Source of the DNA: a virus | Reading direction: 5' to 3' (one strand) | Virus record (IMG/VR): IMGVR_UViG_3300042691_019356 | Location: 7,318 to 71,317 of that record | Length of the DNA: 64,000 nt | Part shown: positions 11,064 through 64,000 of the stretch, one piece after another | Numbering within the stretch: the stretch's first letter is position 1 | How the letters are laid out: each line of letters begins with the position of its first letter | Notes under the pieces: generated by a model | What the model was told of the DNA's origin: nothing | Database searches by the model: none | What the model saw: the letters and a program-made list of their open reading frames with translations, nothing else | Translations under genes and position numbers: made by a program

Positions 11064-11067
11064 GTTC

Positions 11068-22414: not shown

Positions 22415-22665
22415 GGCCCCTTCGCTAGCACCTCGGGTATCACCTCACCTGAAACCGGATTGAGGCACCTTCCTGGGGCGCCTGGGCGTCGATCCGGTGG
22501 CCTTGGTGACGAGTGATCCACCCCCGGCTACCTCGGACAGCCCAAAAACAGGTGGACAGCGATCGAACTGTCACAGATTTACTGTCAACGTTCCGTCGTG
22601 TGTCAGGTTTCAATGCACCCACAAGTAACAAGCAAGTGGCTGCTCGAAAACCAATCAAGAAATCC

Positions 22666-23112: not shown

Positions 23113-23121
23113 GGAATTGAA

Positions 23122-23373
23122 ATGCTTTCCTTAAACAGTGATGCCAAATTTATAGTTGATGAGTGCCGCGAATGGCTTTATTGGTTTGCACTCCTTGGCA
23201 TACAACCTGGCAAATGGACAATTTCTGAGGAGTTTGTCTGCATTCTAATCAGAGAAAATAAAATTCTCATAGATGAATTGGGTATTGTAGAGCCGCTTAG
23301 CTCTAGCATAACAACACTATATGGTATTCCGGTTGAAATTTGCCAGTCACCACTGACCATCAAACTTACCTAA
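23122..23373 (+). CDS. hypothetical protein (83 aa)
   Basis: Clean ORF in the plus-strand operon. Confidence 0.45.
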   Translation: MLSLNSDAKFIVDECREWLYWFALLGIQPGKWTISEEFVCILIRENKILIDELGIVEPLSSSITTLYGIPVEICQSPLTIKLT

Positions 23374-23382
23374 ACACTACCA

Positions 23383-23994: not shown

Positions 23995-24047
23995 CGACAG
24001 CAGTCGCATCGAGTGTTACAACTAGCCGCGAACGAACAAACACAGCC

Positions 24048-48495: not shown

Positions 48496-50177
48496 CAGAA
48501 CCTGAGCCTCCAACGGTGTTGGGCGACGGTGCCACCAGTGCTACACCAAGCCTCAATAGCCGTAGCATCTGGAGTTACAGCAACCCCGCTGAAATCGGGA
48601 ACAGTCTGGGCACTTGTGCCAACATCGCCCCCAGCGCTAATATATCCGTCTGTAGTCGAACCCGTTAAGCTGAATGCTGGTGACAATGAAAGCCTGAATA
48701 CTGAGTATGAGTTTGTTCCGACTGCGTAAAGCTTGCGACCATCCGGTGATAAATCAATGCCGTTAATCGCCCCTACACCCATTGCCTGCGACTGCTCTGA
48801 TCCTGCGGTATGTAATCGCCCTGCAGTGCTCAGGGTATATCGGTATAAGTTTGAAGAAGCATCAGCTATAAACAGGCTGGTATCGCCGTTCGCAAGCATA
48901 ATCGAGTCGTATCGCAAACGAGATATACCAAGAGCCATCCCCTCAACCGTACTGATGTCCCAAGCCGTACCAAGTGTCGCCTGGTAGACGCAAAGCCGAG
49001 TATCATCCAACCAGTAAAGTTTTGTCCCAGAATCGCCAATATACAAATCGCGAAGGCCATCTGCAGAAAAGAAAGGCCCCTGTGCAGACTGAAAACTTAA
49101 GTTAGTGCTACCGGTGTCCCATGCGCTACCGGTTAGGTTGAACGTTCTGATCGTTCCTGCGGTGTTCCCTGCTGCATACAGCCTAGTTCCGTCCTTGAAA
49201 AAAACAGAATTAGGTGCCGTATCACCGAGACCACTTGATTCTGACGTAAACGTTACACTGGCCAAACTGTAGGCACTGCCAAGGGCGTAACGCACTATGT
49301 TGTCGCCAGTTGGCCCGACAACATATAGATCGTTGCCTGAGTTCCCAAAGTCGAATCCGAGTGGAGTAGCCTCTTGGGTTGACACACTATAGCTAACGTT
49401 ATCATAAGTGAGTGCTCCCGTTGTAGTTGTGTACGCAGGGCTCACGCTGTATTGGTAGATTGTATCGTTTCCGCTGTTAAGCACAAAGAGCTTGGTGCCG
49501 TCGGCGTTGAACCTCACTTTTACCGGTGTAGTTGCCTGTGTTGCTACGCTTGCGGATCCCTGAAAGGATGCCGACGATATATCCCAGGCTGTCGAAAGGT
49601 TGTATTGATTTATGTCATCCCCGCTTGTCCCAATCACGAACAGACGAGTCCCATCAGGCTTGAAAGTAAATCCCTGCGGTAGCGCTTCTTCGCCGCCTAC
49701 ATATAGTTTTTTCACCAGAGGCGTAGCGCTGTCTAGCTCCCACGCCGTTGATAAGTCAAACTCTACAAGTCGCTCATCCACGGCTGCCGCCGCGTTATAT
49801 CCACCAGCATATAACTTTGTTCCAGCCGCGTTAAAAGTTACGGTATTGCAGTTTAGCATCCAATCGCCCAGCACAATAGATTTACTGGGGTTGGTACGAC
49901 TAGCCAGGTCGTAAGGGGCGCCGAGATTGAGCTGATGGACCGCTGCCGTCGTCCTGGTGCCACCAAGTACCGTGACGTAAGCGCGAGTGCCCTGCTTGCC
50001 ATAAACCACTTGCCGGATCGTGCCAGAGATGCCAGTGATGTTGTTGACGTCATAGGCATAGGCGGTCATCGGTGCGCGACCTTGAGCACTTGAGGCATAT
50101 CGCAGCCCGTCATCCATGGAATAGATGCCAGAAGTCCTGGTGAGATCAACCTGCCTACCCATCAATCCGAGTCTCAT
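48495..50177 (-). CDS. repeat (beta-propeller-like) protein, 560 aa
   Basis: At least 8 repeats of roughly 45-60 aa, each ending in a (Y/F)xLSTAWD(I/T)S-type motif preceded by G(T/K)KL(Y/F). Confidence 0.5.
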   Translation of the reverse strand: MRLGLMGRQVDLTRTSGIYSMDDGLRYASSAQGRAPMTAYAYDVNNITGISGTIRQVVYGKQGTRAYVTVLGGTRTTAAVHQLNLGAPYDLASRTNPSKSIVLGDWMLNCNTVTFNAAGTKLYAGGYNAAAAVDERLVEFDLSTAWELDSATPLVKKLYVGGEEALPQGFTFKPDGTRLFVIGTSGDDINQYNLSTAWDISSASFQGSASVATQATTPVKVRFNADGTKLFVLNSGNDTIYQYSVSPAYTTTTGALTYDNVSYSVSTQEATPLGFDFGNSGNDLYVVGPTGDNIVRYALGSAYSLASVTFTSESSGLGDTAPNSVFFKDGTRLYAAGNTAGTIRTFNLTGSAWDTGSTNLSFQSAQGPFFSADGLRDLYIGDSGTKLYWLDDTRLCVYQATLGTAWDISTVEGMALGISRLRYDSIMLANGDTSLFIADASSNLYRYTLSTAGRLHTAGSEQSQAMGVGAINGIDLSPDGRKLYAVGTNSYSVFRLSLSPAFSLTGSTTDGYISAGGDVGTSAQTVPDFSGVAVTPDATAIEAWCSTGGTVAQHRWRLRF

Positions 50178-50539
50178 TAGCCCATCCTCTTTTCAGTCCA
50201 AGTAATTTCAAGATCACCAGCGGCGCTGGCCTGAGCACGCAAGCTGTAGCCCTCTTTCAGAAAGACTTCGCCGTTGCGGGCAAGCACAACCTGCGTTGCG
50301 TCAGCCGGCACCGTCAACGTCTTGCAGTAGCTGTATCCAGTGGTGCCGTTGAACAGTTCCACGGTAATGTCTGCCGCGTTGACGCCATCTACGTTGGCCA
50401 CCATCAGATTCGTGATGTGGACCACCGTGTTGCTGTTGCTGCTGTTGCTGACGAATGCCGTCATTGACGTGGTGACGGCATAACCTTCACTGCCGGCATA
50501 CACGGGAATGGTGCTGCTGTTGATGTTGGGGTTGGCCAT
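50177..50539 (-). CDS. hypothetical structural protein (120 aa)
   Basis: ORF in the train. Composition suggests a beta-rich protein. Confidence 0.4.
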   Translation of the reverse strand: MANPNINSSTIPVYAGSEGYAVTTSMTAFVSNSSNSNTVVHITNLMVANVDGVNAADITVELFNGTTGYSYCKTLTVPADATQVVLARNGEVFLKEGYSLRAQASAAGDLEITWTEKRMG

Positions 50540-50540
50540 G

Positions 50541-50906
50541 TTAAAACACTAAAGAGGCAGCAAGGCTGCTCATGCCAGCGCTACCGCCCGTTGCAGTTAT
50601 CGTGGTGCCGCTAATGCTTAGCCCACTACCTACTTCCAGATATGTCAACTTGCCAGCGCTATCATCCCAGAACGCCAGTCGATCGGCGCCAGGATCATCT
50701 GCACTGATCTCACCGGCAATAGCTGACAGCACATCAGCGGCGCTGGCGGCAATCGTGACACTGCCCGTACCACCAGCCGGCGGGTCGTCCCACACGGCAG
50801 GCGCCCCAGGCCCCGCTGAGTATGGGATCTGCCCAGGAATGCCGGCACTACCACCAAGCAGCAGGGCACCCTTCAGGTCAACGTCGGCGTGGAACTCTTT
50901 TGCCAT
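50541..50906 (-). CDS. Gly/Ala/Ser-rich fibre-associated protein (121 aa)
   Basis: ORF coupled to the fibre-like gene upstream. Confidence 0.4.
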   Translation of the reverse strand: MAKEFHADVDLKGALLLGGSAGIPGQIPYSAGPGAPAVWDDPPAGGTGSVTIAASAADVLSAIAGEISADDPGADRLAFWDDSAGKLTYLEVGSGLSISGTTITATGGSAGMSSLAASLVF

Positions 50907-51697
50907 CAGCCAGTCACCACAGCAGTAAACTGGTTGGAAGTCGGCGCCAAAGTGAACAGCAGCGTCAGCGCTGACGTGCTGGTATGACGCACCTCGGCTT
51001 CAATCTGGTCGTAATTTCCCGAGTTCCTGTAGATCGCCACCTGTAGCGCCCGAGTGCCAAGGTTGTGCGTCAGCGTGAAACTGGTAGCCGAGCCGTCGCC
51101 AATATCACTTGTATAGCGCTTCGTCTTGCCACTCCAAGTCGTTAGCTTCAGCGGCGTGATAGCCCGCTGATCGTCCGTACCAACATCAGTTTCGGCTTGC
51201 GTGGCGATTTCGATTCGGCCGGCGGTCGTCTCGCTTGCCAGCGGGATCACAGCAGCAAACGCAGTCCATACAACATTGCTGCTGTCAATCGTTCCGTTTA
51301 CCTGTGTCTGCCGCCATTGCGTGCCACCATCCGTACCTTCTTCGACGGTGACAACCGCAGCTTCCAGTTCGGCAAACGTCGAAGCATCCAGTGCCCGCGT
51401 CATTGGCGTCGCGGCCCCGGTCCACACGTAAATCCCGTTCCCTGGCTCGCTGGTCTGCAGTCGCACCAGCACCCGATCGCCACTGCTCATGCTGATGCCG
51501 TCGATCGTGGCGCCAGGAGCAGACAGGTTGATGTTTCCCTGCGTGCTGACACGTACGGAATCCTTCCAGGCCAGTCCCTCGACAAACGTCCGAACCTGCG
51601 CAAGGGTTGCGGGCTCCTGCGGATCAGTGGCATCCGGCAGGTTCAGAATCCTGCTAGCGCTCAGCAGGTCAAGATCGACGTAAATGGGACGAGCCAT
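50906..51697 (-). CDS. fibre-like protein (263 aa)
   Basis: N-terminal ILNLPDATDPQEPATLAQV and ASETTAGRIEIATQAETDVGTDDQRAITPLKL motifs are common in phage tail/head fibre N-termini. Confidence 0.5.
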   Translation of the reverse strand: MARPIYVDLDLLSASRILNLPDATDPQEPATLAQVRTFVEGLAWKDSVRVSTQGNINLSAPGATIDGISMSSGDRVLVRLQTSEPGNGIYVWTGAATPMTRALDASTFAELEAAVVTVEEGTDGGTQWRQTQVNGTIDSSNVVWTAFAAVIPLASETTAGRIEIATQAETDVGTDDQRAITPLKLTTWSGKTKRYTSDIGDGSATSFTLTHNLGTRALQVAIYRNSGNYDQIEAEVRHTSTSALTLLFTLAPTSNQFTAVVTG

Positions 51698-51699
51698 GA

Positions 51700-52008
51700 T
51701 CAGGTAAGCCTTGCGAGGCCAGCGACGGGAATGTTGAAGTTGACAACGGTGACGTTATCGGAAAGGTGAAAGACGTCACCATCAATTTCCTGGCTTGCTG
51801 TATTCAGAAGCTCAACACTTGGCTTGAGACCAAGATTGTGGGAAATTGTCCACGTTGTAGATGGAGATGTCTGTGTGTGGATGTAGGTTGGAGCTGATGG
51901 GCCTGGGGGACCAGGGACGAGGATTTTCACAATTCTAACGCCGCCGTCCTCGACAACATTGATAATCGGACGGATTGCCCCAGATACGCTGATTGATGGC
52001 TCGGTCAT
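51700..52008 (-). CDS. small beta-rich structural protein (102 aa)
   Basis: ORF in the train with ATGA-type junctions. Confidence 0.4.
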   Translation of the reverse strand: MTEPSISVSGAIRPIINVVEDGGVRIVKILVPGPPGPSAPTYIHTQTSPSTTWTISHNLGLKPSVELLNTASQEIDGDVFHLSDNVTVVNFNIPVAGLARLT

Positions 52009-52352
52009 GGCAGTGCCTCTGTTGAGCGCTCGTCAAGAGGAGCGGGACCACGCAAGTAATGATCCCTGGTGCCATCCGAATTGATGATAAGCAAATCCCA
52101 GGCAGCATCTTTTGTAACTGTCTTCGTTACAGTCCACGGGGCCTCAAGCCTTACCTTCAGGGTCGGCGTAAGCTGTGTCACAACAACCGTCAACTGAAAT
52201 AAAAGCTCCCTTGGCTCGCAGCCACTAGACCAAACTTGGGCAACAACCGTTTTGCCGCTGCCGGAAAACGGAAATTCAAACTCTTCCCGCAACGTCGCCT
52301 TTTGCGGAATAACCAACGCATAAGTAGCTGGAATTACGGTTGCCGAGGTCAT
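52005..52352 (-). CDS. hypothetical structural protein (115 aa)
   Basis: First ORF after the capsid-gene terminator. Confidence 0.4.
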   Translation of the reverse strand: MTSATVIPATYALVIPQKATLREEFEFPFSGSGKTVVAQVWSSGCEPRELLFQLTVVVTQLTPTLKVRLEAPWTVTKTVTKDAAWDLLIINSDGTRDHYLRGPAPLDERSTEALP

Positions 52353-52399
52353 GGCTCATGCTGTTGTGCGGCGGAAAGCCGCCAAACCAATGCTAGCCA

Positions 52400-52427
52400 T
52401 GAAAAAGCCCCCCATTGCAGGAGGGCT
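52400..52427 (-). terminator. intrinsic terminator after the capsid gene
   Basis: The minus strand reads AGCCCTCC-TGCAAT-GGGGGGCT followed by TTTTTC. A second hairpin GGCGG-CTTT-CCGCC follows at 52370-52383. Confidence 0.65.
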
Positions 52428-52452
52428 TAATCACTCGATCAACTAGAAGTGA

Positions 52453-53436
52453 TCAGACGTAGCAACGAAGGCGGGTGATGCGGATGTTGCGGTTGTCGGT
52501 GAACACTTTCTGCCAGTTGGAACCGGTAGAAAGTTCAGCGTTGGTAGGGGCGTTACCGGCAGCGTTACCGACCCAGCTAATCCCGTTCGGGTGAATCATG
52601 TAGTGGGTGCGGTTGATCAGGTAGTCGATACCCATCAGCTTGTCCCGATCGGTTTCGAGCGGGTTCTTGGCGGGAGCATTTGCATAGGCAAAAGCGCCAG
52701 GGCCGAAGAAGTAGGTGTGATGGACATCGGCACCACCGGTACCAGCACCAGCGTCATACGGAAGTGTGTTGTCAACGAACACTGGGCGACCGAGATAGGT
52801 GCCAAGTTCCAGGCGCTGCGCGGACAGGCGGCTGTCGAGCTGCGATGTGGTAGACGCCGGAATGATGAGGTCCATCTTCATCAGCGCGTAGTAAACCTCA
52901 CTACGCATCATGATGCCGGTCAGCTCCTGGCCCGCGTCGCCCAGCTTGGCGATACCATCAACCATCGCGCTTTGCGAAAGCTGAGTAGAGGTGCCGCCAA
53001 CAGCGTGACTACTGGCCAGAGGGCCGCCGGTATTGAACAGACCCTGCATGATGTTGATCGCAGTCTTCTGCATGTCACGCACCCAGTATTGACCGGTGCG
53101 ACGAGCAGTGGCCTGCATCGGGTCAGCACCAGAAAGCTCACCAGCGAGATCGCTGGCCTTCCAGGCGCGGCCACGCATGTTGCGAACACCGGTCTGCACG
53201 TCACCGGTCAGGGTGGCGGGGCTCAGGCCAGATGTATCGCTCAGGATCTCCGAATCACCCGAGAGATCACCGAAGAAAGGAAGGTCGATCGTCTTGCCGC
53301 CTTTGGCAAACTCAGCCTGGATAGCAGAGTTCGTCACCATGAGGCCGGAGGAAACCAGGGCATTGCGATCCTGGATTTCTTCCTGTTGGTACTCAAGAAA
53401 GAGAGTGGGGATAAAAGGAACGCCTGCGAGCAGCAT
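52453..53436 (-). CDS. major capsid protein (HK97-fold candidate, 327 aa)
   Basis: Size, position after the scaffold gene, a private leader, and strong terminators on both sides all suggest a highly expressed gene. Confidence 0.6.
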   Translation of the reverse strand: MLLAGVPFIPTLFLEYQQEEIQDRNALVSSGLMVTNSAIQAEFAKGGKTIDLPFFGDLSGDSEILSDTSGLSPATLTGDVQTGVRNMRGRAWKASDLAGELSGADPMQATARRTGQYWVRDMQKTAINIMQGLFNTGGPLASSHAVGGTSTQLSQSAMVDGIAKLGDAGQELTGIMMRSEVYYALMKMDLIIPASTTSQLDSRLSAQRLELGTYLGRPVFVDNTLPYDAGAGTGGADVHHTYFFGPGAFAYANAPAKNPLETDRDKLMGIDYLINRTHYMIHPNGISWVGNAAGNAPTNAELSTGSNWQKVFTDNRNIRITRLRCYV

Positions 53437-53572
53437 TGTCCTTAATGCGAGTGTACGAGGGGTTGCGGTACGACCGCTAGACGGTTCAGCTTCACAGCAC
53501 TGCTGCTGGACCGCCTAGCGATCCTGCTGCGAGGCACGGCCTCATTGCCTAGATGATAGCCACTGGCTACGG

Positions 53573-53606
53573 AGAAACAAACAAAAGCCGGGGTGTTATC
53601 CCCGGC
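53573..53606 (-). terminator. intrinsic terminator
   Basis: The minus strand reads GCCGGGG-ATAACA-CCCCGGC followed by TTTTGTTTGTTTCTCC. Confidence 0.7.
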
Positions 53607-53627
53607 GTACATTGCAAGATCGTGTGA

Positions 53628-53903
53628 TCAGTTCAGGGTATAGCCCTTACCAGTCAGCACAGCCTTTTCGCCAGCATCGAGAGCAGCCCAACCAGCACAG
53701 CCACTGGCGGTAATGGTTTTGGTACCAGTGACGGTAGGAGCCTGGGCAAACAGCGAATTCAGTTGAGCTTCGGTGAAAGCATCGGGAAGCACGAAAGTCC
53801 AGTTCTTCACGGAATCCGTAGCAATACGAATTGCAGTCAGAACTTCGTCAACTTCGGTCGTGATCTGACGAGCGATGACATTGCGATCAGTTTTGAGGGC
53901 CAT
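53628..53903 (-). CDS. small head-associated protein (91 aa; decoration candidate)
   Basis: Position just upstream of the capsid gene. Confidence 0.35.
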   Translation of the reverse strand: MALKTDRNVIARQITTEVDEVLTAIRIATDSVKNWTFVLPDAFTEAQLNSLFAQAPTVTGTKTITASGCAGWAALDAGEKAVLTGKGYTLN

Positions 53904-54177
53904 GGCTGGAATGGAACGTTCCGTCTTCCATGTTAGCGACAGTCTCCGGTTGGACTATCTCCAGTAGGCTATATCGTCTTTGAACAAGCTCTTTCTTCAA
54001 TTCTTCAATTTGCTTTTCGCTTGGCATGTAGGAAACATCGACCGTTGCAACTTCTCCCGCAACAAAGTTAATTGAAAACGATGTTACGGTTTCGTAGTTT
54101 TCAACTCCAAGCGCCCTCAAAATATCCAATACCAGCGGGTTCTGGGAACTCACTGCACGAAATTGCTCCATTGTCAC
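53887..54177 (-). CDS. hypothetical protein (96 aa)
   Basis: ORF in the train. Confidence 0.4.
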   Translation of the reverse strand: MTMEQFRAVSSQNPLVLDILRALGVENYETVTSFSINFVAGEVATVDVSYMPSEKQIEELKKELVQRRYSLLEIVQPETVANMEDGTFHSSHGPQN

Positions 54178-54461
54178 TTTGCTACAGGACGCTTGGTGGA
54201 TTGTGTGCGAGCCCTGGTAGCGGGCTTTGGGGCATCCACTACAAGTTCACGCGATTGCACGGATCGGCTAATCTCCGGGTTTTCGGTCCAGTAGCCACGC
54301 TCGTAGCCAATGCGAGCCGCAGGCCCGAGGCCCATGATTGCCAGCGCAGCCGTCCATCTGGATTCACTCCAGCCACCAGTACCCGCATAGATCATGCCAA
54401 TGACCATCGGCAGAAACATCGAGATGTCAATCTGCCCACGAAACAGTTTTCCCATTGTCAA
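54174..54461 (-). CDS. small membrane protein (95 aa, two hydrophobic segments)
   Basis: Hydrophobic segments ISMFLPMVIGMIYAG and WTAALAIMGLGPAA. Confidence 0.4.
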   Translation of the reverse strand: MTMGKLFRGQIDISMFLPMVIGMIYAGTGGWSESRWTAALAIMGLGPAARIGYERGYWTENPEISRSVQSRELVVDAPKPATRARTQSTKRPVAK

Positions 54462-54791
54462 TCAGCAGATAGAGCTTGAAATCAGGGTAGCCACAACAAT
54501 CCATTTTACCTTATCAGCCCAATAGGCAGCCGACAGCTTTCCTTTTTTAATGTTTTTGGCATGGCGAGCTTTGAAAGATCGCTGCCTGGCTTTTTCACTT
54601 GCGGAACTTGGATTGCTGCCAGCGCCCTGCACACCCTGCTGGCCAAAACGAATTAGCTTATAGGTATCGCCTTCTTTTGCCATCACGACATGAGATTTTT
54701 TGTCGTGACTTGGAGTCCGCTTAGGCTTGTTGACACCAGAAAGGCCAAGCCTCTTCATGGTGCTTTTGACCCGCTCAGGTGTTGCCGCCAT
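54462..54791 (-). CDS. small basic protein (109 aa)
   Basis: Lys/Arg-rich. Contains NKPKRTPSHDKKSH..V.AKEGD..K.IRFGQQG and RHAKNIKKGKLSAAYWA.KVKW motifs. Confidence 0.5.
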   Translation of the reverse strand: MAATPERVKSTMKRLGLSGVNKPKRTPSHDKKSHVVMAKEGDTYKLIRFGQQGVQGAGSNPSSASEKARQRSFKARHAKNIKKGKLSAAYWADKVKWIVVATLISSSIC

Positions 54792-54838
54792 CTCTGATCA
54801 TCCACAAATAGCTTCAGTTGTAATTTTAGCCATTGCCG

Positions 54839-55102
54839 CTAGGAGCGCTTCTTCCTTTTGTGTTGATAGCCAATTCTCTTTGAGCTTGTCTTCTCTCTCT
54901 TGAACTTATCTTTTTCTTTCTTGGAAAGCTCGCCTGAAGTCTTTGGTGTTTCGGAGGATACCCGCTTTGATGGTCGGCAGGCCGGATACCCTTTACGCTT
55001 TTCACCCTCCTGTCTGCCACAGGGCTTGCCAGTCTTGACGTCAATCCACTTTTCAGCAAACCAACGGCCCAAGCCGCCCCTTGGCTTTTTACTTTTTGCC
55101 AC
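54839..55102 (-). CDS. small basic protein (87 aa, GTG start)
   Basis: KWIDVKTGKPCGR...GYPACRP motif followed by a Lys-rich tail. Confidence 0.45.
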   Translation of the reverse strand: MAKSKKPRGGLGRWFAEKWIDVKTGKPCGRQEGEKRKGYPACRPSKRVSSETPKTSGELSKKEKDKFKREKTSSKRIGYQHKRKKRS

Positions 55103-55259
55103 TCTTTACCTCCTGGGTTTTATAGCCACCGCCACGCCTCTTGTACTCACGAACAAGCCATCCATTTGCATAGGCACTTGGATAAACCTTGAACTTTCTT
55201 TTTGCCTCGGCCTTAACCCTTGCGTAAAGAGCTTTGTCGGTTGGAATGTTCTTTTTCAT
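55089..55259 (-). CDS. small basic protein (56 aa, below the ORF-track cutoff)
   Basis: Hand translation gives MKKNIPTDKALYARVKAEAKRKFKVYPSAYANGWLVREYKRRGGGYK... ATGA junction with the upstream stop. Confidence 0.45.
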   Translation of the reverse strand: MKKNIPTDKALYARVKAEAKRKFKVYPSAYANGWLVREYKRRGGGYKTQEVKSGKK

Positions 55260-55411
55260 TTTCCGCCCTTTTTGGTTTTTGGCTTTTTCTTGCTCTTGCT
55301 GGCTTTGGAATAAGCAATGGCAATCGCTTGCTTTTGCGGATAGCCTTCATCCATCAGCTTCTTCACGTTGGAAGACATTGCCTTGCTGGATTTACCAGAT
55401 TTCAGTGGCAT
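55256..55411 (-). CDS. small basic protein (51 aa)
   Basis: Internal ATG gives MPLKSGKSSKAMSSNVKKLMDEGYPQKQAIAIAYSKA followed by a Lys tail. Confidence 0.4.
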   Translation of the reverse strand: MPLKSGKSSKAMSSNVKKLMDEGYPQKQAIAIAYSKASKSKKKPKTKKGGK

Positions 55412-55442
55412 AGTATTTCGGCGGTTGGCCCAGTCTAGGCAC

Positions 55443-55468
55443 AAAAAAAAGACCCCCTCGCGGAGGTC
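55443..55468 (-). terminator. intrinsic terminator after the scaffold gene
   Basis: The minus strand reads GACCTCC-GCGA-GGGGGTC followed by a run of eight T. Confidence 0.75.
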
Positions 55469-55492
55469 TCATAGCCCAAGTCCCTTCCGATC

Positions 55493-56341
55493 TTAGGACG
55501 CCGAGAGCGCACGGCCAATGATCGGATCGAGCTTGCCGGCCAGCCTTGCATCTTGCATCAGACGACGACCCTTGCTCGGATCTTCGGTCATGATCCTTGC
55601 CGCTTCGGTTGCGTTTGCAGATCCAACGGCGAAAGGATTGTTGGACATCGGAACGGAAGTGCGAGAGGCGGGCAGGCCAGAACCACTCGCGCCAGATCCT
55701 CGGAAGTAAATTGAATACTCCTCATCTTCACGAAGCTTCGTTGCAGCATCACGAAGAGTAACCGGATCATCCTCGGAGCCAAAAACAGCGGTTTCATCAT
55801 CATCGAGGAGATGAAACTTATCTTGCAGCAGCTTGTAGACATGGCTCGGCCGCTGGCAATCGGCCCTTTCGAGTTCCTGAACAACCTTGGATTGCAGAAT
55901 GCTTTGGCGACGCAGTTGCTTTTCGCGTTGCGCCATCTGATCTTTCTGCACATTCTCCTCGGTCAGGCGGTTGATCTGGTTCTGCAGGGCCGACAGCTGC
56001 GCCCGCAGGGCCGAGTCCACCGCCTCGCTGGGAGTTTCCCCGCTGGACTGGCCAGAGGGCTGCTGCTGGGTCTCCTGGGTGCCAGTGGCGGTGGTGCCGG
56101 TGCGAACAGCGGTGACAGCCTGGATCACCTGATCTTCAAAGTTCTCGGCATTCAAGTCAATACCAGCAGCCTTGATCAGTGATTCAACGGTTTTCTTTTT
56201 CCGTAGATCAGCAAGCAGGCCGGACTTGGTGCCCTCAAGACTCTTGATCTTGATGGCCTGTTCGTCCAGCTTGCGTTGCAGCTCCTCGATGGTCAGGTTG
56301 CTGGAGTCGTTGGTGGTGGGGTCTTGGGATTCGGGAGGCAC
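55493..56341 (-). CDS. scaffolding protein candidate (282 aa, GTG start)
   Basis: Helical coiled-coil composition. Lies between the portal and capsid genes. Confidence 0.5.
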   Translation of the reverse strand: MPPESQDPTTNDSSNLTIEELQRKLDEQAIKIKSLEGTKSGLLADLRKKKTVESLIKAAGIDLNAENFEDQVIQAVTAVRTGTTATGTQETQQQPSGQSSGETPSEAVDSALRAQLSALQNQINRLTEENVQKDQMAQREKQLRRQSILQSKVVQELERADCQRPSHVYKLLQDKFHLLDDDETAVFGSEDDPVTLRDAATKLREDEEYSIYFRGSGASGSGLPASRTSVPMSNNPFAVGSANATEAARIMTEDPSKGRRLMQDARLAGKLDPIIGRALSAS

Positions 56342-56387
56342 GAACAGTTTGCGTTGTGACTATTGGAAGTGTAGCACCGAACGGGGA

Positions 56388-58088
56388 TCAGGATTCCCTG
56401 CTTTCGACGCTCGCTTCCATGCTCTCGCCCTCCAGCGCTCTGCCAGTAGCTTCCTCCATAGTGTTCTGCATGTTGTTTGTTGCAGGGGGCTCCGGGGCAA
56501 GCTGTTCCTTGTTGGGGCCGATTCCGAGATCCTTTGCGGTCTCGCTTCCCTCCAGGCCCATCTTTTCAAGCAGTGTCTTAACGCTGAAGTTCGGCAAGCC
56601 TTCAAACAGCTCACCAGCATCGAGCATTTCAAGAAATGTGCCAATGGGAATAGCATTGGAATCCTTGAACAAGCTGCTGTATGCCATGACTTGCTGGCTA
56701 TGAAGCTTGACGGGAATGAAGTTCTTGCTAATCGTAATTTCAATCGGTGGGTAGTTGCGGTAGGCGGAGGCGTACATCAACGCTGCATTCAGGCAGTCCT
56801 GCAGTGAACTGATCAGCACAGCAAGTTGCGAATCAGATTGAGAGCGATCGAGCAGCTTGGCAAAGCCTGATTCAACCTGTGTTTTGCCAGGTGTCATCGT
56901 CACGGCAGCTAACTTGTCCATCGCGGCTTCAATCCGTGCAAGTTCTTTCAATGTTGTGTCGGCACCCTCCATGCCAGGAGACAGCATTCCAAACCTTGCA
57001 TCTGGATTAGCGCTAAACAAGGCACGACCAGCACCAGAAAAAATCTCTTCATCCGGCCTGATGCCAGTACCGGTCAGCATCGTGGACGCATTGAGGTGAA
57101 TGTTCTCGGAAAGATCAGCAGAAACGGCCCAGTGGTGCAGATTGAGGCGGGCAACGTCATACAGAAGTGGACGGGCACGGAAAAATGCCTCTTTTTTGCC
57201 GCCGTAGCAGGGCCGGAAGGGAATAAATGACAGCGAAAGGATGGTTGTCATGCCTTCATTAAGCAAATATCTGTTGACATTCTCGTTTCCGGTGTCTTTT
57301 TCGTAAATACGGCAACGAACACGCTCTTCAACGACATCGCTACCAGGATTTTGGTACGGAATCAGATCGTAAACAACGACAGTAGGAATAACTTCCTCAA
57401 AATGTTCGTTTTCAAGGCTTGGGCGACGAATTTCCGACTTGATTCGCAGATATGTAACGCGAGTATCGTACCTCGTAACCCCATTGATTGTTACCGGGCC
57501 ACGATCATCACGAATATCAAGCACATCATCAGTCGGAATAATGACAAAATAGGGCCTGGCATTCAGCATGATCTCCTCGGCGGACGTAATTCCGTCGCGC
57601 ATTCGTGGATATTCAGACCAAATGCCGGCAACACCACCATTCAGAGCCTTCGTGAACAGCTCTTTAGTGAACGAAGTGATGGCATTGCCCTGGAGATCGA
57701 CGTTTTTGAAGAATTCTTCCCATTGCGGAGGTACGTCCTGGGGAAGGATTACCCCTTTTCGCAGTGCTGTACCAACAATCAGGTCAACAAGATGGCTATA
57801 ATACGGCTCGAAACACGTCAGTGCACGGGTTTTGCGGACGTTGTAAGACTCCGGGTGCTCTCGATGATCTTGCGGAATCGTTCCAGGCGCCGCTTCATCA
57901 AGCCAATACTCGGGATAGGTGCAGAATTTGATCGGCATCAGCCGTGTCATCTGCTGCGCTTGCTCGGGAGAGTAGGAATCAGCATCTACAACCTCTTCCA
58001 GGAATGTTTCCTGTTCCGGGAACCGACGCTCAAACGGATCGAGATTATCGTCGGCCCCGAGAATCAGCGAGCTGGGCGTGGCAATCAT
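56388..58088 (-). CDS. portal protein (566 aa)
   Basis: Size and position downstream of terL and upstream of the scaffold gene. Confidence 0.6.
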   Translation of the reverse strand: MIATPSSLILGADDNLDPFERRFPEQETFLEEVVDADSYSPEQAQQMTRLMPIKFCTYPEYWLDEAAPGTIPQDHREHPESYNVRKTRALTCFEPYYSHLVDLIVGTALRKGVILPQDVPPQWEEFFKNVDLQGNAITSFTKELFTKALNGGVAGIWSEYPRMRDGITSAEEIMLNARPYFVIIPTDDVLDIRDDRGPVTINGVTRYDTRVTYLRIKSEIRRPSLENEHFEEVIPTVVVYDLIPYQNPGSDVVEERVRCRIYEKDTGNENVNRYLLNEGMTTILSLSFIPFRPCYGGKKEAFFRARPLLYDVARLNLHHWAVSADLSENIHLNASTMLTGTGIRPDEEIFSGAGRALFSANPDARFGMLSPGMEGADTTLKELARIEAAMDKLAAVTMTPGKTQVESGFAKLLDRSQSDSQLAVLISSLQDCLNAALMYASAYRNYPPIEITISKNFIPVKLHSQQVMAYSSLFKDSNAIPIGTFLEMLDAGELFEGLPNFSVKTLLEKMGLEGSETAKDLGIGPNKEQLAPEPPATNNMQNTMEEATGRALEGESMEASVESRES

Positions 58089-58117
58089 GGTTTTATCACT
58101 TTGCCACCATTATAGCC

Positions 58118-58462
58118 TTATTCGGCACTACCCCTGGCGATGATTTCATTCAAGGTATTACAGTAGATGGTGATCAGCATTTCAAGCGTGCCAATGACTG
58201 AGTAAATTGTCATCTCTCCACTTTCAATCACGCCAATGCAAACCGTGATCAACTTACTATAAAGCTCTGGGCAGGTAAATGAAAGCGCAACAGAACGATA
58301 GTGGGCGACGTCATTGACAACAAGCCGAAGCTGGCCAATCAGATCGGTGATTTGCTCGCAGGTCTCAAACTGTCCGCACTCAAGTAAAATATCACCAATT
58401 TCTTTCTTGAATTGCATGTAGCGAGTGGATGGCTTCATTGATGTGGCTGTGGTGCGCCGCAA
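58118..58462 (-). CDS. hypothetical protein (114 aa)
   Basis: ORF between terL and the portal gene. Confidence 0.4.
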   Translation of the reverse strand: MRRTTATSMKPSTRYMQFKKEIGDILLECGQFETCEQITDLIGQLRLVVNDVAHYRSVALSFTCPELYSKLITVCIGVIESGEMTIYSVIGTLEMLITIYCNTLNEIIARGSAE

Positions 58463-58470
58463 TCATAGCG

Positions 58471-59883
58471 CTACTTCCAACGCGGGCCATAGCCAGCACG
58501 CATACCAGCCCTGGGGAATACCTGCCAAACGAGGTAGCGGAACGCATCACCAGCATGGGAGTGGTCGGTGGCACCACCCTTCAACGGCTTCATCGTCTTG
58601 CTGTCATACACCCATTGCTCCAGTGATGCAATGGTGTCGTAACAGGTCGTTGGATTGACGAGAATGCAATTCCGGTGGATGTAGAGGTTGGTGTGGGCCA
58701 GGGTCTCCGCGATCGGCGGGTTGCGGCGCTCCGTCACCACCTGCACGCCGGCATTCCGCAGGATGTCGTGGTCGCTCTGGGTCGAGGCAGTCGAGCCGTG
58801 GCTGCCGCTGGCGTCCGGGTAGCAGGTGATCATGCCATTCGCCAGATGACGTGGGAATTTGCGTTGCAGATGAGCAACAAGCGCAAAGGTATCAGGGACA
58901 CGAGCTTCATCAAAACAGTGCAGCTGCTGACCACCAGGACCAGGACGGACAACACCATAAACGGATTGGCATTGACCCACGTTGAAGTCAGCGCCAAACA
59001 CAATGCGTTCACCGGCTTCGGGATGAAACAGACCAGTGGAATGCTTCTGTCGATCGAACTCGTAGAAGACAGTGGCAGATTCAAGGTTGACGAACTCACC
59101 TTCGAGATACGCCTTAATCAGTGACGGATGGTACTTAGATTCGAGGTCAGCAATAAAACCGGGATCAAGGTATGGGTTTTCGCGGGACTTACCTTTATAC
59201 AGCTTCTTGTTGTCAGCTGGTTCTTTAACGTAGAAGGAATACATCCATGCAAAGCCTTCAGGCGTTGACACGGTGCAAATTTGTGGGCAGTTACCAACAC
59301 GAACGCGACCCTGCAGCTTCACCATTGCTTTCTCGGCAATGTCATGCCTGGACGTGTCAATTTCATCAGCTACCAGTGAAGCAGCATTGACACCGACGAG
59401 ACGTTGGTAGTTTTCAAGCGACCGCTGTAGTATCGGAGTGTCACCACCGGGAATCTTCAGAATGATGTTCGGGCGGGGAGAAGCGCGGAACTCATACGGG
59501 ATCGAGTATTTCTCCAGCACCTGGAACCAAGTAGGTAGCGCCACGTCCATGATTAGCGGAACGGTGGGCTCCAGAAACAAATGCGTGAAGCCAGGAGATC
59601 GCAAGCAAAGAAGAATTGCTTTTATTACGGCACTGTAAGATTTACCAGAACCGTAGCCCGCACAGAACCCAACGTACTTGTGATCAAAGTCACATACAAA
59701 GTCACGCTGATACGGCAGTAAATCAGCAACCAGCCTGGATTCAAGATCCTCGCCATCCAGTCTCGATTTCGTTCGCTTCGATAGCCGATTCAAGATCGCT
59801 TGATCTGCCAGTAGCCCCAATCCGCGCAGCGATGCCTGGTCCGCATATCGTGTCGCCTTTGCCTTGATCGGCATTCGTGTCAA
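58471..59883 (-). CDS. terL: terminase large subunit
   Basis: Walker A CAGYGSGKS and Walker B LVADEID, with a C-terminal nuclease-sized domain. The start is TTG 59883 or ATG 59874. Confidence 0.85.
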   Translation of the reverse strand: MTRMPIKAKATRYADQASLRGLGLLADQAILNRLSKRTKSRLDGEDLESRLVADLLPYQRDFVCDFDHKYVGFCAGYGSGKSYSAVIKAILLCLRSPGFTHLFLEPTVPLIMDVALPTWFQVLEKYSIPYEFRASPRPNIILKIPGGDTPILQRSLENYQRLVGVNAASLVADEIDTSRHDIAEKAMVKLQGRVRVGNCPQICTVSTPEGFAWMYSFYVKEPADNKKLYKGKSRENPYLDPGFIADLESKYHPSLIKAYLEGEFVNLESATVFYEFDRQKHSTGLFHPEAGERIVFGADFNVGQCQSVYGVVRPGPGGQQLHCFDEARVPDTFALVAHLQRKFPRHLANGMITCYPDASGSHGSTASTQSDHDILRNAGVQVVTERRNPPIAETLAHTNLYIHRNCILVNPTTCYDTIASLEQWVYDSKTMKPLKGGATDHSHAGDAFRYLVWQVFPRAGMRAGYGPRWK

Positions 59884-59906
59884 CCCTCTGTCGGAATCTT
59901 AAAGCA

Positions 59907-59936
59907 TTGACAAGGAAAAGAACAGTGGGATACAAT
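59907..59936 (+). promoter_or_regulatory. near-consensus sigma70 promoter (TTGACA-N18-TACAAT)
   Basis: Read directly on the plus strand, 24 nt from the terL start and divergent from it. Confidence 0.55.
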
Positions 59937-59956
59937 ATCACCGTTGCTTGGCTGCC

Positions 59957-60061
59957 ATGACAAAGGCCGAAATCACCGCAATCACCATCGTTGTTGCATC
60001 TGCTGTCATTGCTATGCTGTTTACAGTAACTGATGCAATGATCCAACTGCACCATGGCTGA
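59957..60061 (+). CDS. 34-aa single-TM peptide (MTKAEITAITIVVASAVIAMLFTVTDAMIQLHHG)
   Basis: Hand-translated ORF downstream of the promoter. Its stop overlaps the next ATG in an ATGGCTGA junction. Confidence 0.4.
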   Translation: MTKAEITAITIVVASAVIAMLFTVTDAMIQLHHG

Positions 60062-60332
60062 TTTCATTGTTCCTGACGGCTGGCCCATTGATCGTCATGT
60101 TGATGCCCACGAGTCAAATGAAAGATGGGGGCCATGCTATGTCTTTGATGCCAGTGGAAATTTCATTGACAAGGCAATCTCGTGCCATGTCAGCGCTGGA
60201 GAGGTTATATCTGTTTTCATGGATGCCAATGGTATGTGCGAACGTGGTCTGGATAGTAAGCCTGCAACAATCTTGACGGTTCATCCAGCACCACTTATTG
60301 TTCGACAGATCAAGGAACCCGTGCTACCCTAG
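60054..60332 (+). CDS. hypothetical protein (92 aa) on the opposite strand
   Basis: Clean ORF bracketed by a consensus promoter and a strong plus-strand terminator. Confidence 0.5.
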   Translation: MADFIVPDGWPIDRHVDAHESNERWGPCYVFDASGNFIDKAISCHVSAGEVISVFMDANGMCERGLDSKPATILTVHPAPLIVRQIKEPVLP

Positions 60333-60352
60333 TCACGTTCTTGGAGGACACT

Positions 60353-60383
60353 TCCCTCGGGGTGAGATCCGGGGGATTTTTTT
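60353..60383 (+). terminator. intrinsic terminator (plus strand)
   Basis: TCCCTCGG-GGTGAGAT-CCGGGGGA followed by a run of seven T. Confidence 0.7.
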
Positions 60384-60620
60384 GGAAAAAAATTTGGTGG
60401 CAAGGACTTGTTGTTATATGGTGTGGTGAAAATATATTGTGGTTGGGAAGGATTTGTTGAAAATGGGAAAAAAATTGTGGTCGTTGAAATTGGGAAAAAA
60501 ATTTGGTGGTGGGCTTGGTGAAATTGGAAAAAAAATCTAGGGGTGGGTTTGGTGAAAATGGAAAAAAAATTTGGTGGTGGGCCCGTTGAAAACGGGAAAA
60601 AAATTTGGGAGTGGGTGGTC
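60384..60620. repeat. phased A-tract repeat array (six GGA7-8TTT units)
   Basis: GGAAAAAAA starts at 60384, 60466, 60493, 60526, 60560 and 60595. The last four units of 33-35 bp read GGAAAAAAATTTGGTGGTGGGCYYGGTGAAAAT. Confidence 0.85.
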
Positions 60621-60713
60621 GCCGCCGTTCCGCGCAAAATGTAACCCACCCCGGCTAAATTGTAACCCATTCCTTATTGCATCGTAACCTCTGCTTCGAT
60701 GTATTGCAATGTA

Positions 60714-60743
60714 GCGGCCCCTTGATTGTATTAAAGGGGCCGC
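60714..60743. repeat. 10-bp-stem hairpin GCGGCCCCTT ... AAGGGGCCGC
   Basis: Read directly, just past the stop of 60756..61670. There is no T-tract on either strand. Confidence 0.7.
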
Positions 60744-60755
60744 CGTTACTGTTAA

Positions 60756-61670
60756 TCAGCGCTTGCGATTCTCCTCCTGCTTGTTGGAAAATGTGATAAC
60801 ATCGCCACGGCGAAGGACTACCCTGCCGCAGTAATCTGCGAGAGCATTAAGAGTGCCCTCCAACGTATTAAACCGTGCCACGCCCTTAAACGTATCTTTG
60901 TGTTGGATCATATATGCTGCCAGTGATACAACCCTGGCACTGCCACCCTTACTGGTCAAGTTCGTTTGAGCTGTAACCCAATTAAGCAGGGCATGTTTCT
61001 GCAATTTACCGCGCTTTTCATTGGCACTGATCGATGTGATGATTGGACGCGTCAGAGCATCAATGTCACGCGGACTGTAACCAGTATTGATCTTCTCACT
61101 GATTCCCCAGCCAGCGCGCTCCATTGCGGCGCGCGTGATCGCATCAGGCTCCCAGACAGGCTGTCCGGGCTTGACGGTACGTGAACCCTTCTCAACGGTC
61201 GGCAGGGGGGGCAGGGGGGCCGCCATTGACGCTAGGAGCGTATCAAGCTCCAGCATTACCGGATCGTCGGCATCCTCTGCCACAGCGGCGTCCTCTGCCA
61301 CAGCGGCGTCCTCTGCCGCGTCAGCAGCGGCCACACTTGCGGCGATCCTCTCAGCAGAATCAGCAGCGGCCACGGCGTCAGCAGCAGCAGCAGCAGCAGC
61401 AGTAAGGTCGCCGGTCGCCATAGCGTCAGCCACGGCCACAGCAGCAGCAGCGGCGGCGTCAGCAGCAGCGGCCACAGCGGTAGCAGCGTCAGGATCAGCG
61501 GCCACAGCAGCAGCAGCAGCGGCGATCCGATCAGCAGCAGCAGCGGCATCCTTGACGTAGTTGAAGGAGCGGCCGTTGTTCTTGCGATTGTTGGGCACGG
61601 TTTTTTCCGGTAGGCGGGACTGGTAGAGGTTTGTCCCGTTGCAGGAATCATACAACCCCCTGCCTGCCAC
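60756..61670 (-). CDS. protein with Ala/Asp low-complexity N-terminal half and globular C-terminal domain (304 aa, GTG start)
   Basis: This is the only frame with a non-repetitive C-terminal 160 aa. The start codon is uncertain. Confidence 0.45.
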   Translation of the reverse strand: MAGRGLYDSCNGTNLYQSRLPEKTVPNNRKNNGRSFNYVKDAAAAADRIAAAAAAVAADPDAATAVAAAADAAAAAAVAVADAMATGDLTAAAAAAADAVAAADSAERIAASVAAADAAEDAAVAEDAAVAEDADDPVMLELDTLLASMAAPLPPLPTVEKGSRTVKPGQPVWEPDAITRAAMERAGWGISEKINTGYSPRDIDALTRPIITSISANEKRGKLQKHALLNWVTAQTNLTSKGGSARVVSLAAYMIQHKDTFKGVARFNTLEGTLNALADYCGRVVLRRGDVITFSNKQEENRKR

Positions 61671-61907
61671 GCAACCTACAGGCTAAACCGGTTTGCAAAC
61701 CGTAACAGTCTCGCCACGTTGTAGGACGGTGAACCGCAAAAAACATTCGTTTTTAGCCGTTGCGGGAACGTGCTAGCAGCCGTGCCATACAGATAAAAAC
61801 GCGGGAATTGTGGGGAACCGGCAGGTCGATGTAACTAACACCTGGCGCGGTTTGCATCAGCGCCGGCACCCTATCTTGCATCGGTTGGGTTTGTTGTATT
61901 TAGCGAT

Positions 61908-62382
61908 TGCAATGTATCATTGTGTTTAGCATCTGCTATGTATTGTTATCTATCAGCAATTGCTATGTAACAAACAGCGATTGCAATGTATTGTAATTCG
62001 ATCGTAATGTAATGTAGAAGGCTGTGCATTGTAATGTAACTGCAGCTGTATTGTAATGCACCGGGGCGTTGTATTGTAACGTGCATTCGTTGTATTGTAA
62101 GGCGTACTTGTTGTATTGTAGCACGGAACGGGCGTAACGTAACGTGGCGCAAGCGTAATGCAATAAGGTAAATGGCGTAATGTAATGAATGGCGTTGTAA
62201 TGTATTATGAATGGCGTTGCGATGTAATGAATGGCGCAATCGCCTGTAATGAATGGCGTTGCGATGTAATGTGAATGGCGTTGTAATGTAATGAATGCGT
62301 GAATGGCTTGTTATGAATGGGCCTGGGGCTTGTCATGAATGGCCCAGATCAGTGTTGCGAATGCGCTTGTATTGAATGGCGT
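61908..62382 (+). repeat. iteron array, about 22 direct repeats with a 21-22 bp period
   Basis: Cores are TTGC(A/T)ATGTA, TGTA(A/T)TGTA and (GTAATG)AATGGCG. Positions are listed in the findings. Confidence 0.85.
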
Positions 62383-62815
62383 TATTCCAAACTTGTATCT
62401 TGTGGGTTCTCTGTTGCTTGGTGCCAGGGTTTGCAAGCAAGGGATCGACAATAATGTATTTTTTCTCTTTGTAATCTACCATGCGAATGAGATCAAGTTC
62501 ACGCAGGTCTTGTATTGCTCGCCGCATTGTTCTTTCATGAATGATGGTTTCTTCTGCGAATTCCACCAGATTGTAATGTATCAACATCTTGCAATAAGAA
62601 ACGTCAATAAGCGTGGCAAGTATTGCAAATGATGTCATCGAAAGATTGAGATCACCCCTGTTGCGAAGTATTTTAAGCAGTCTTGCACTCCATGGAGGTA
62701 ACGTACCAAGGCTTGTAGTTAGTTGCATTTTGTAGAAATTTGGGATGGGTTCCGGGCGGCCCCGAATTGTAAACGAGTTTTGTAAAACCCTGTCGTGGAC
62801 TGGGGTTCTCGCCAT
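62333..62815 (-). CDS. winged-helix DNA-binding protein (160 aa; possible TTG extension to 62971)
   Basis: The C-terminal segment ETIIHERTMRRAIQDLRELDLIRMVDYKEKKYI fits an HTH plus wing. ATG 62815 is preferred over TTG 62971. Confidence 0.5.
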   Translation of the reverse strand: MARTPVHDRVLQNSFTIRGRPEPIPNFYKMQLTTSLGTLPPWSARLLKILRNRGDLNLSMTSFAILATLIDVSYCKMLIHYNLVEFAEETIIHERTMRRAIQDLRELDLIRMVDYKEKKYIIVDPLLANPGTKQQRTHKIQVWNNAIQYKRIRNTDLGHS

Positions 62816-62980
62816 GGGATTGTCAAATTCCCGGTTTGAGATCCATTGCGGCGCAGTCGATCTCGGGAGTTGCTTATTATTATTTATGGCCTGTACGGCA
62901 ATCCCTATGGTTGCAATGCGACCACGCACAACGTTGTAATGCAACTTGACAGCCGTTGCAATGTAATGCAATACTCGTTG

Positions 62981-63817
62981 CTATTCAACCTCGGACTCCT
63001 CCAATGCAACTAACAGTTGATCGACACCAAGTGCGGTAGATTGTAATTGCTTCCCGATGTCAGCTAACTTGGCAGCAGCGTTTAACATTGATGGCATGTC
63101 CCGTACTGTAATGTTTTCTGCATTGTCCAGCATTGTATTCAAGGTGGCATTGGCAAGTTGTGCAATCTTTGCTGCATTCATACTTAGCTGCCGACCAATT
63201 GCTTCTTGTTCCTGGCGATACCTCTCCAGTTGCATTAAGTGTTCCTGTTGTCTTGCATCCTGGGACAGCTTGATCTTCTGGGATAGCATGTACCTGTCGT
63301 AATCAGCAGCACGTAGCTTCCAATTGTTCTTGCAATAAATCTTGTAGATGGTTGATTCTTGTATATTGAGTATCTGCGAGATATATTGTATTGATCGACC
63401 CCCTCCCAGTTCTAGGAAGGATTGTAGGAATTGAAATTCTCGTTCAGATTCAAGAGGGGCGTACTGTGACCTGTATAGCCAGGAATGTGTTTTGGTTGTG
63501 GGGGAGGAGTTAGTGGGCGCGAGAATAACTTCTTCTTGGGTATTGTCATCACTATCAAAACCAAAAGGATTGACATCAACAGTAGCATCATCTTGTGATT
63601 CATCTTCAGCGTCATTGTATTCAAAGTCATACTGTGTTGTATCTTCATTCGTGTCTTCGTTGTAATCAGATTGGTTGGGCACTTGTGATTGGGGGCGGGT
63701 GGTTGTAATTCTACCACGGGTGGGATGTTTGTGCTGGGGACTGGTTGTAACGTTTCCATTCCTGTAACGTAATGTGAGTTGACACAAAAAATGGGATGTG
63801 ACATTGCCACACCCCAT
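62981..63817 (-). CDS. HTH plus coiled-coil protein, terminase small subunit candidate (278 aa)
   Basis: Acidic N-terminus, an HTH-like segment RSIQYISQILNIQESTIYKIYCKNNW, then a long helical region. The TerS call is tentative. Confidence 0.4.
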   Translation of the reverse strand: MGCGNVTSHFLCQLTLRYRNGNVTTSPQHKHPTRGRITTTRPQSQVPNQSDYNEDTNEDTTQYDFEYNDAEDESQDDATVDVNPFGFDSDDNTQEEVILAPTNSSPTTKTHSWLYRSQYAPLESEREFQFLQSFLELGGGRSIQYISQILNIQESTIYKIYCKNNWKLRAADYDRYMLSQKIKLSQDARQQEHLMQLERYRQEQEAIGRQLSMNAAKIAQLANATLNTMLDNAENITVRDMPSMLNAAAKLADIGKQLQSTALGVDQLLVALEESEVE

Positions 63818-63851
63818 TGACTTATTCCAGTAGTAACCATGTTCAAAGCCA

Positions 63852-63879
63852 ATCGAATGTATTTGGCGCTACATTCGAT
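63852..63879. repeat. perfect palindrome ATCGAATGTA-N8-TACATTCGAT
   Basis: Read directly, 35 bp upstream of ATG 63817. Confidence 0.8.
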
Positions 63880-64000
63880 CACAAGCCATTCAACACTAAA
63901 TAATCCCACACGGCGTTGCTTTGTAACGCTTGTGATGCTTCATAAACCATTAACAAAGAACAATGGATTGTGTCGAGAGGTGTCATTCATGTAGTGTGCG

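Follow-up and report, generated by a model that had tools for sequence, protein, structure and literature searches.

Why does a phage whose genes lie almost entirely on one strand carry a short unit of the opposite orientation beside its terminase large-subunit gene? We analyzed this locus in a stretch of 64,000 nt (the window), which holds almost the entire genome of an uncultivated, apparently virulent phage of ~71 kb and in which nearly all genes are on the minus strand. The original prediction described the unit as a self-contained, moron-like cassette of two ORFs expressed from a prophage. On balance, we think it somewhat probable that the unit is an independently transcribed, non-essential accessory cassette of moron-type architecture, placed in a variable spacer between terS and terL of a phage that appears to be virulent. 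The features are listed by position below.

59907..59936, plus strand: sigma-70-type promoter, TTGACA-N18-TACAAT (consensus match)
59957..60061, plus strand: ORF1, putative single-pass membrane peptide of 34 aa (hydrophobicity rank)
60054..60332, plus strand: ORF2, soluble beta-rich protein of 92 aa, unannotated phage-only small-protein family (selection, homologues and model)
60127..60131, plus strand: polymorphic G run, GGGGG in haplotypes A and C (intact) and GGGG in haplotype B (frameshift)
60353..60383, plus strand: intrinsic terminator with a 9-bp stem (6 G-C pairs), a 6-nt loop and U7 (folding)
60381..60611, no strand: A-tract repeat array, 6-7 copies with a period of ~34 bp, abutting the terminator
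59891..60320, no strand: allelic divergence patch with 36 substitutions (~8%), covering the promoter, ORF1 and ORF2
58471..59874, minus strand: terL, the divergent neighbour (Pfam Terminase_6N, phrog_2)
62981-63817, minus strand: terS (phrog_6299)
22513-24917, plus strand: the only other plus-strand block, with three small ORFs, dCTP deaminase and a sigma factor
23383-23994, plus strand: dCTP deaminase
24048-24917, plus strand: phage sigma-70-family factor (regions 1.2, 2 and 4)

Three natural haplotypes of the cassette were compared. Haplotype A, that of the window, specified an intact 92-aa product on at least 22 contigs (JGI, ENA and Logan). Haplotype B occurred in three Logan assemblies (L001-L003) from at least two studies and matched the cassette of the window at 95% identity. 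Haplotype C (L040 and L041) was a recombinant in which a B-type promoter and the 5' part of ORF1 were joined to an A-type remainder, with the crossover between 60000 and 60044 and with ORF2 intact.

Genome setting and transcription signals

In minus-strand reading order, the genes around the cassette were terS, a 212-aa HTH_36-like gene, a 304-aa Ala-rich gene, the cassette itself (on the plus strand), terL and the portal gene (DUF4055), followed by scaffold, capsid (Gp13-like) and giant tail protein genes and then the other plus-strand block. Genes further on encoded DnaB, ERF, an exonuclease, a dNMP kinase, a MazG-like protein, ThyX and tRNA-Met. A 71,417-bp contig that was 100% identical to the window over 50054-64000 reached 6.3 kb beyond it, and the extra sequence held small minus-strand ORFs with no Pfam match. 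The nearest annotated terL proteins, at 36-40% identity, belonged to cyanophage siphoviruses, and there was no DNA match to GenBank phages. The MazG-like (13014-13448), ThyX (10431-11108) and Kyano_Gp96-like (1184-1888) genes formed a cyanophage-like repertoire, despite which HIP1 sites (GCGATCGC) numbered zero in the 64 kb. The tRNA-Met gene (CAT; 5082-5154, minus strand) lay in the early region.

The spacer between terS and terL measured 3.1 kb and held two genes, two repeat fields and the cassette; the gaps of relatives were also at least 2 kb long, with different contents. An iteron field of 21-22 bp (61890-62385; TGTAATG, TTGTATTGTAA and AATGAATGGCG) lay between the 304-aa and the 212-aa HTH_36-like genes and resembles either an origin or an array for a DNA-binding protein, while two copies of TGTAACCC at 60640-60669 were closer to the cassette. 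The 304-aa gene (60756-61670, minus strand) contained CAG/GCN repeats and a hypervariable patch (61227-61449) with 39 substitutions relative to L001, mostly with period 3. It was followed on the minus strand by a hairpin with an 11-bp GC stem and no U tract (-26 kcal/mol).

The terL homologues begin MPxK/R, and the ATG at 59874 has AGAGGG 9 nt upstream; terL most probably starts at this codon rather than at the TTG at 59883. With the homologue-based start, the -35 box of the cassette would lie 33 nt from the start of terL, and not 24 nt as first given. Close relatives carried an insert of ~1.07 kb in terL exactly at window position 59650, which the window terL lacked. In L001 (7273-9750) the insert was an in-frame intein (PF14890) within an 825-aa terL, and L002 (311-1138) held an HNH_3 ORF there. 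Beside the insertion site (window 59199-59650), the sequence was identical apart from a cluster of 25 substitutions, a pattern that resembles a homing co-conversion tract.

A near-consensus promoter had been predicted at 59907-59936 and was found there, with a -35 box TTGACA (59907-59912), an 18-nt spacer and a -10 box TACAAT (59931-59936). It matched 11 of the 12 consensus positions and was the top sigma-70 match on both strands of the 64-kb window; the same scan gave zero further sites at 11/12 and only five at 10/12. We estimate that the 870-nt gap separating terL from the next gene on the minus strand would contain ~0.01 sites of this quality by chance. The predicted transcription start at ~59943 would leave a leader of just ~14 nt, and no Shine-Dalgarno motif was found for either ORF1 or ORF2. 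In haplotypes B and C the promoter read TTGACA-N18-TATGGT with a preceding TGG as an extended -10-like motif, so that a promoter-like site was kept despite 7 substitutions in 50 nt. The phage-encoded sigma-70-family factor could redirect the host polymerase, and it bears on which promoters count as early. If this factor read the cassette promoter, the timing would be other than that expected of a host-polymerase early cassette, which is a point against our preferred reading.

The strong terminator predicted at 60353-60383 was likewise present, starting 21 nt past the ORF2 stop. Its hairpin had a centroid energy of -14.7 kcal/mol on the plus strand vs -10.7 kcal/mol on the minus strand, where the G-U pairs become mismatches and the U tail is absent, and it is predicted to act in the plus orientation only. 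Terminator-like patterns were common as such, with 12 found over 9 kb against 9.8 expected. The hairpin was identical across the haplotypes but for T7 vs T8. Both the promoter and the terminator are matches to consensus patterns and are predicted signals. The A-tract array began at the T run of the terminator, had the repeat unit GAAAATGG(A)7-8TTTGGTGGTGGG with phased A-tracts, and was unique in the window. It showed zero substitutions between haplotypes and was polymorphic in copy number, with L040 lacking 60456-60482 and haplotype B carrying 2 extra nt. The array probably lies outside the cassette and may be a pac/terS site, an origin or an activator-binding array.

The head-on arrangement makes antisense interference with read-through into terL, which the original prediction implied, geometrically possible. 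A mainly regulatory role, in which the ORFs would be secondary and in which, for as long as early transcription lasts, head-on transcription or antisense RNA would weaken or hold back the read-through that reaches terL from terS and the 304-aa gene, seems to us unlikely. Such a role would fit the 870 nt of non-coding sequence, including the entire cassette, that minus-strand transcripts must cross to reach terL, and the rank of the cassette promoter as the strongest match in the genome. It would also fit a weak minus-strand promoter-like site (59963-59934) that overlaps the -10 box, and there is a precedent in the P22-like ant moron (immI/sieA region), which affects tailspike expression (PMC2629481). 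However, the overlapping minus-strand site was degraded in haplotypes B and C, and the strong hairpin that follows the 304-aa gene (60717-60748; z=-4.6) suggests that transcription of terL may begin at a point of its own. The protein-level selection on ORF2 described below was strong, which argues that coding is not secondary.

The two open reading frames

The 34-aa ORF1 was present where it had been predicted, from the ATG at 59957 to the TGA at 60061, and contained a 19-residue hydrophobic core (ITAITIVVASAVIAMLFTV). Its top 19-residue Kyte-Doolittle window scored 2.5, which made it the most hydrophobic (rank 1) of the 150 window ORFs that begin with ATG and encode 28-45 aa. ORF1 was intact in 3/3 haplotypes with the variants S15F and Q30E, and its dN/dS was 0.31, based on just 4 changes. 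No homologues were found beyond its own lineage, and a 34-codon frame would be open by chance with an estimated frequency of ~0.19. ORF1 is thus best described as a putative gene, the coding nature of which is plausible.

Type I toxin peptides of the Hok, TisB and Fst type are likewise small and hydrophobic, and ORF1, with ~34 aa that form mainly one hydrophobic helix, resembles them. It differs in being putative, in having no sequence relation to them and in that no cognate antisense RNA gene was found. That ORF1 encodes a toxin-like membrane peptide of this type, the mRNA of which is neutralized by antisense read-through of the late operon, would agree with its strong hydrophobicity and with the convergent transcription geometry, but we consider it highly improbable. 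We detected no dedicated or conserved antisense promoter; a search against Rfam returned no RNA family, the isrG match of 21 bits (100 needed) being attributable to chance; and ORF1 had neither homologues nor a selection signal, in a frame that could be open by chance.

ORF2 extended from the ATG at 60054 to the TAG at 60332 and overlapped ORF1 by ATGGCTGA, so both the junction and the 92-aa frame of the original prediction were borne out. The two natural alleles of ORF2 in the window and in haplotype B were 8% apart, and 18 of the 23 substitutions between them fell at third codon positions (binomial P=1.3e-5). After restoration of the haplotype B frame, dS was 0.33 and dN was 0.031, giving a dN/dS of 0.09 that spanned both sides of the G run. 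None of the frames other than that of ORF2 was open (1-9 stops each). A minus-strand gene under the cassette was considered and rejected, as the minus frames held 2-7 stops and the third-position pattern fitted plus frame 0 only. ORF2 is a genuine gene under strong purifying selection, because its dN/dS is 0.09, it is intact on at least 22 contigs and it belongs to a conserved family.

To define this family we searched 1.8 billion representative proteins with HMMER, followed by a profile search. This identified ~13 homologues of 75-92 aa that aligned over their full length at 34-48% identity (profile E 1e-20 to 1e-35). The invariant positions were P11, P27, D32-A33-x-G35, G49-E50-V51 and P78-A-P-L81, and the N-terminal 26 residues formed the best-conserved stretch. 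When the family alignment was supplied, AlphaFold2 gave a model of one short helix and six strands with a pLDDT of 87.9 and a pTM of 0.73; the single-sequence model (pLDDT 40) was useless. Foldseek found no match to the model in the PDB (best E 0.4, TM <=0.31), and its matches in BFVD were uncharacterised small phage proteins only (TM 0.6-0.7). Searches of Pfam, PHROG, PADLOC and PDB sequences with ORF2 or the family gave no match, PADLOC-DB models matched 0 of the 13 members at E up to 1, and ORF2 as a single-protein query had no match in IMG/VR. The homology and structure searches that the original prediction had proposed were therefore productive in part, yielding phage homologues and a confident model and no link to an annotated family or a solved structure in these databases.

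Strong HMMER matches of ORF2 to FG-GAP/beta-propeller proteins were rejected as evidence of homology, since they consisted of one short motif that is repeated 6-14 times in the targets. ORF2 has in common with the FG-GAP_2 repeat proteins (PF14312) a ~13-residue beta-hairpin motif, Y(V/I)FD(A/T)SGN(F/Y)I(D/T)K. It differs from them in matching one motif copy only and in giving no propeller in the fold search; the likeness is one of motif and not of family membership, and PF14312 matched neither ORF2 nor the other members of the family, even with the E limit relaxed to 1. Separately, relatives of 70% identity encoded 151-aa proteins ~2 kb upstream of terL and co-directional with it (L005-L007, 3772-4227; L015, 1097-1555; L028, 2590-3045). 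These had the motif LFDADGVEI..C.EIDTETG in common with ORF2 (hmmsearch E ~5e-4 in a small database; hhalign probability 39%, weak), and it is possible that they are very remote members of the ORF2 fold that occupy the same slot.

From these features we infer a course of expression that would begin with host RNA polymerase and its primary sigma factor reading 59907-59936 and producing a transcript of ~440 nt from ~59943, opposite in direction to the neighbouring genes. Ribosomes would load on the short leader without a Shine-Dalgarno motif and make the ORF1 membrane peptide, and termination-reinitiation at ATGGCTGA would pass them to ORF2. The hairpin-U7 terminator would halt the transcript before it ran antisense into the upstream minus-strand gene (304-aa).

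Alleles, homologues and origin of the cassette

In haplotype B the loss of one G from the run shifted the frame of ORF2 beyond codon 26; what remained was an out-of-frame product of 73 aa and, for the C-terminal part, an ORF of 68 aa with a chance ATG start. Since the 26 N-terminal residues that are lost are the best-conserved part of the family, haplotype B is a null or crippled allele. In three assemblies this frameshifted allele occurred on a backbone that did not differ otherwise, which suggests that ORF2 is dispensable and that the phage can lose it and stay viable. Frame-disrupted homologues had been named in the original prediction as evidence against it. One allele does carry such a disruption, while the ORF as such is conserved and intact on at least 22 contigs. 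We therefore judge it quite unlikely that the cassette is a relic in decay that no longer serves a function: the frameshift at the G run in three assemblies would favour it, but the intact allele dominates (at least 22 contigs vs 3), the low dN/dS holds on both sides of the run, and the recombinant allele C keeps ORF2 intact.

We then compared the window with L001 and found that they were 100% identical over ~12.8 kb save for four discrete patches, one of which was 59891-60320. This patch started 16 nt before the -35 box and ended 12 nt before the ORF2 stop. A patch of this kind in identical flanks points to import of the module by recombination from a more diverged relative, and the existence of the recombinant allele C shows that the cassette is exchanged as a module. 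Diversity-generating or targeted hypermutation was rejected as a source of the 8% patch, as the changes were mostly transitions at synonymous third positions without an adenine bias.

A more elaborate reading takes ORF1 and ORF2 together as an undescribed, membrane-associated early host-interaction module, in which allele exchange and a G5/G4 switch would tune dosage or on-off state and the head-on promoter would time terL. Its basis is the two promoter versions, the intra-cassette recombinant and the G5/G4 homopolymer indel, and we regard it as speculative and rather improbable. The genes just upstream of the ORF2 homologues varied, with a semi-hydrophobic product of 55 aa in one lineage and soluble products of 58, 129, 190 and 295 aa elsewhere; the pairing of ORF1 with ORF2 is thus not conserved.

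Elsewhere, the ORF2 homologues (L029-L032, L035-L039 and L114-L118; more than 10 contigs) were all co-directional members of tightly packed, overlapping small early genes, typically 1.5-2 kb upstream of dCTP deaminase (DCD). Their neighbours in this early block included DnaB, RusA, DUF4942, HTH_36, AbrB-like, SocA_Panacea, R2K ATP-grasp and DCD genes. The phages that carry them matched the window in DCD (63-67% aa identity) and in several small early genes at 7.8-13.9 kb, and they are genuine relatives because DCD and these genes are common to both. An inverted, self-contained ORF2 unit in the spacer between terS and terL was found in this lineage only, among the phages examined, and the window held no second copy of ORF2. 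As a side observation, a 109-aa ORF in the head-gene region (54462-54791, minus strand) was 66% identical to a 91-aa gene of L035 and L036, where it belongs to the early block and follows the ORF2 homologue, downstream, at a distance of 700 nt. This is a second small gene found in differing modules.

On the side of terL, 25 IMG/VR loci with a terL 57-81% identical to that of the window were inspected, and ORF1 and ORF2 were present in 0/25. The terL-proximal genes of these relatives were mostly co-directional with terL and differed by locus, so the spacer is a variable slot; as a whole, it was non-syntenic among the terL relatives. We found no isogenic empty site, either by an exact-pattern scan of IMG/VR with the post-terminator sequence or with a degenerate metagenome pattern, which gave chance matches and one known contig. 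Insertion or relocation of the cassette is for this reason deduced from distant comparisons. The cassette had a GC content of 47.8% (ORF2 GC3 0.43) compared with 53.4% for terL (GC3 0.58) and 44-48% for the early region, and its base composition resembles that of the early region. Because the ORF2 family is elsewhere transcribed together with early genes, upstream of dCTP deaminase, we further infer that the private promoter, the terminator and the inversion would preserve early expression, independent of the late operon, for a relocated gene.

Lysogeny, function and moron-type architecture

Morons have been defined by their architecture (PMC2629481). The cassette resembles them in that it has a promoter and a terminator of its own, lies among morphogenetic and packaging genes, is variable or absent in related phages and, judged by the frameshifted allele, is not needed for assembly. 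The original description as a self-contained, opposite-strand, moron-like unit was upheld on these grounds: the unit has its own predicted signals, is absent from the terL relatives and carries a gene that is located in the early block elsewhere. Another example of a moron is HK97 gp15. Classical morons are known from temperate phages, and it is typically the prophage that expresses them, whereas no lysogeny module was detectable here. The cargo also differs, being unlike known moron products, from an unannotated family and drawn from the early-gene pool of the phage group itself. At the sequence level, the cassette thus has the private promoter, the private terminator, the insertion relative to related phages and the apparent dispensability of a moron. 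It lacks signs of prophage expression that benefits a lysogen, a trait that is usual and not obligatory.

Expression from a prophage was the part of the original prediction that fared worst. According to that view, the repressed prophage would transcribe the cassette and the lysogen would gain an exclusion, toxin-antitoxin, abortive-infection or conversion function; the private signals, the opposite orientation and the small membrane peptide, which is like some exclusion proteins, would all suit it. However, the window and the 6.3 kb beyond it (~70 of 71 kb) yielded no recognisable integrase, recombinase or repressor family, and no relative of terL was found among 185,579 bacterial and archaeal species genomes (GTDB, one per species), hence no prophage relative. 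The prophage reading was therefore unsupported, and the ORF2 family had no PADLOC match and homologues that lie in operons of the lytic, early type. We rate it as very unlikely. Similarly, the proposed exclusion, toxin-antitoxin and abortive-infection functions received no support from PADLOC, Pfam, PHROG or the PDB.

Returning to the accessory cassette of an apparently virulent phage, a further comparison is with the small early host-takeover and accessory genes of virulent phages, which is one of kind and not of homology. The ORF2 homologues resemble such genes in their length of 75-92 aa, in being packed beside replication and nucleotide-metabolism genes, and in being dispensable and shuffled between genomes. 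In the window, by contrast, the gene stands outside the early block, alone and on the opposite strand inside the packaging region. The most likely class for ORF2 is that of the early host-interaction proteins, with takeover, anti-defence and exclusion as candidate roles.

Taken as a whole, the cassette is a fairly ordinary moron-type unit. It is a clean natural example of a phage that re-deploys one of its own early genes as an insulated unit in the late packaging region, and of moron-style architecture without evidence of lysogeny. The analysis also defines an unannotated, phage-only family of small proteins with a confidently predicted fold and no solved relative, and the three co-circulating alleles (intact, frameshifted and recombinant) amount to a natural experiment on its fitness value. 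Current understanding is not overturned by these observations, and their main value is to supply a candidate for screens of early phage protein function.
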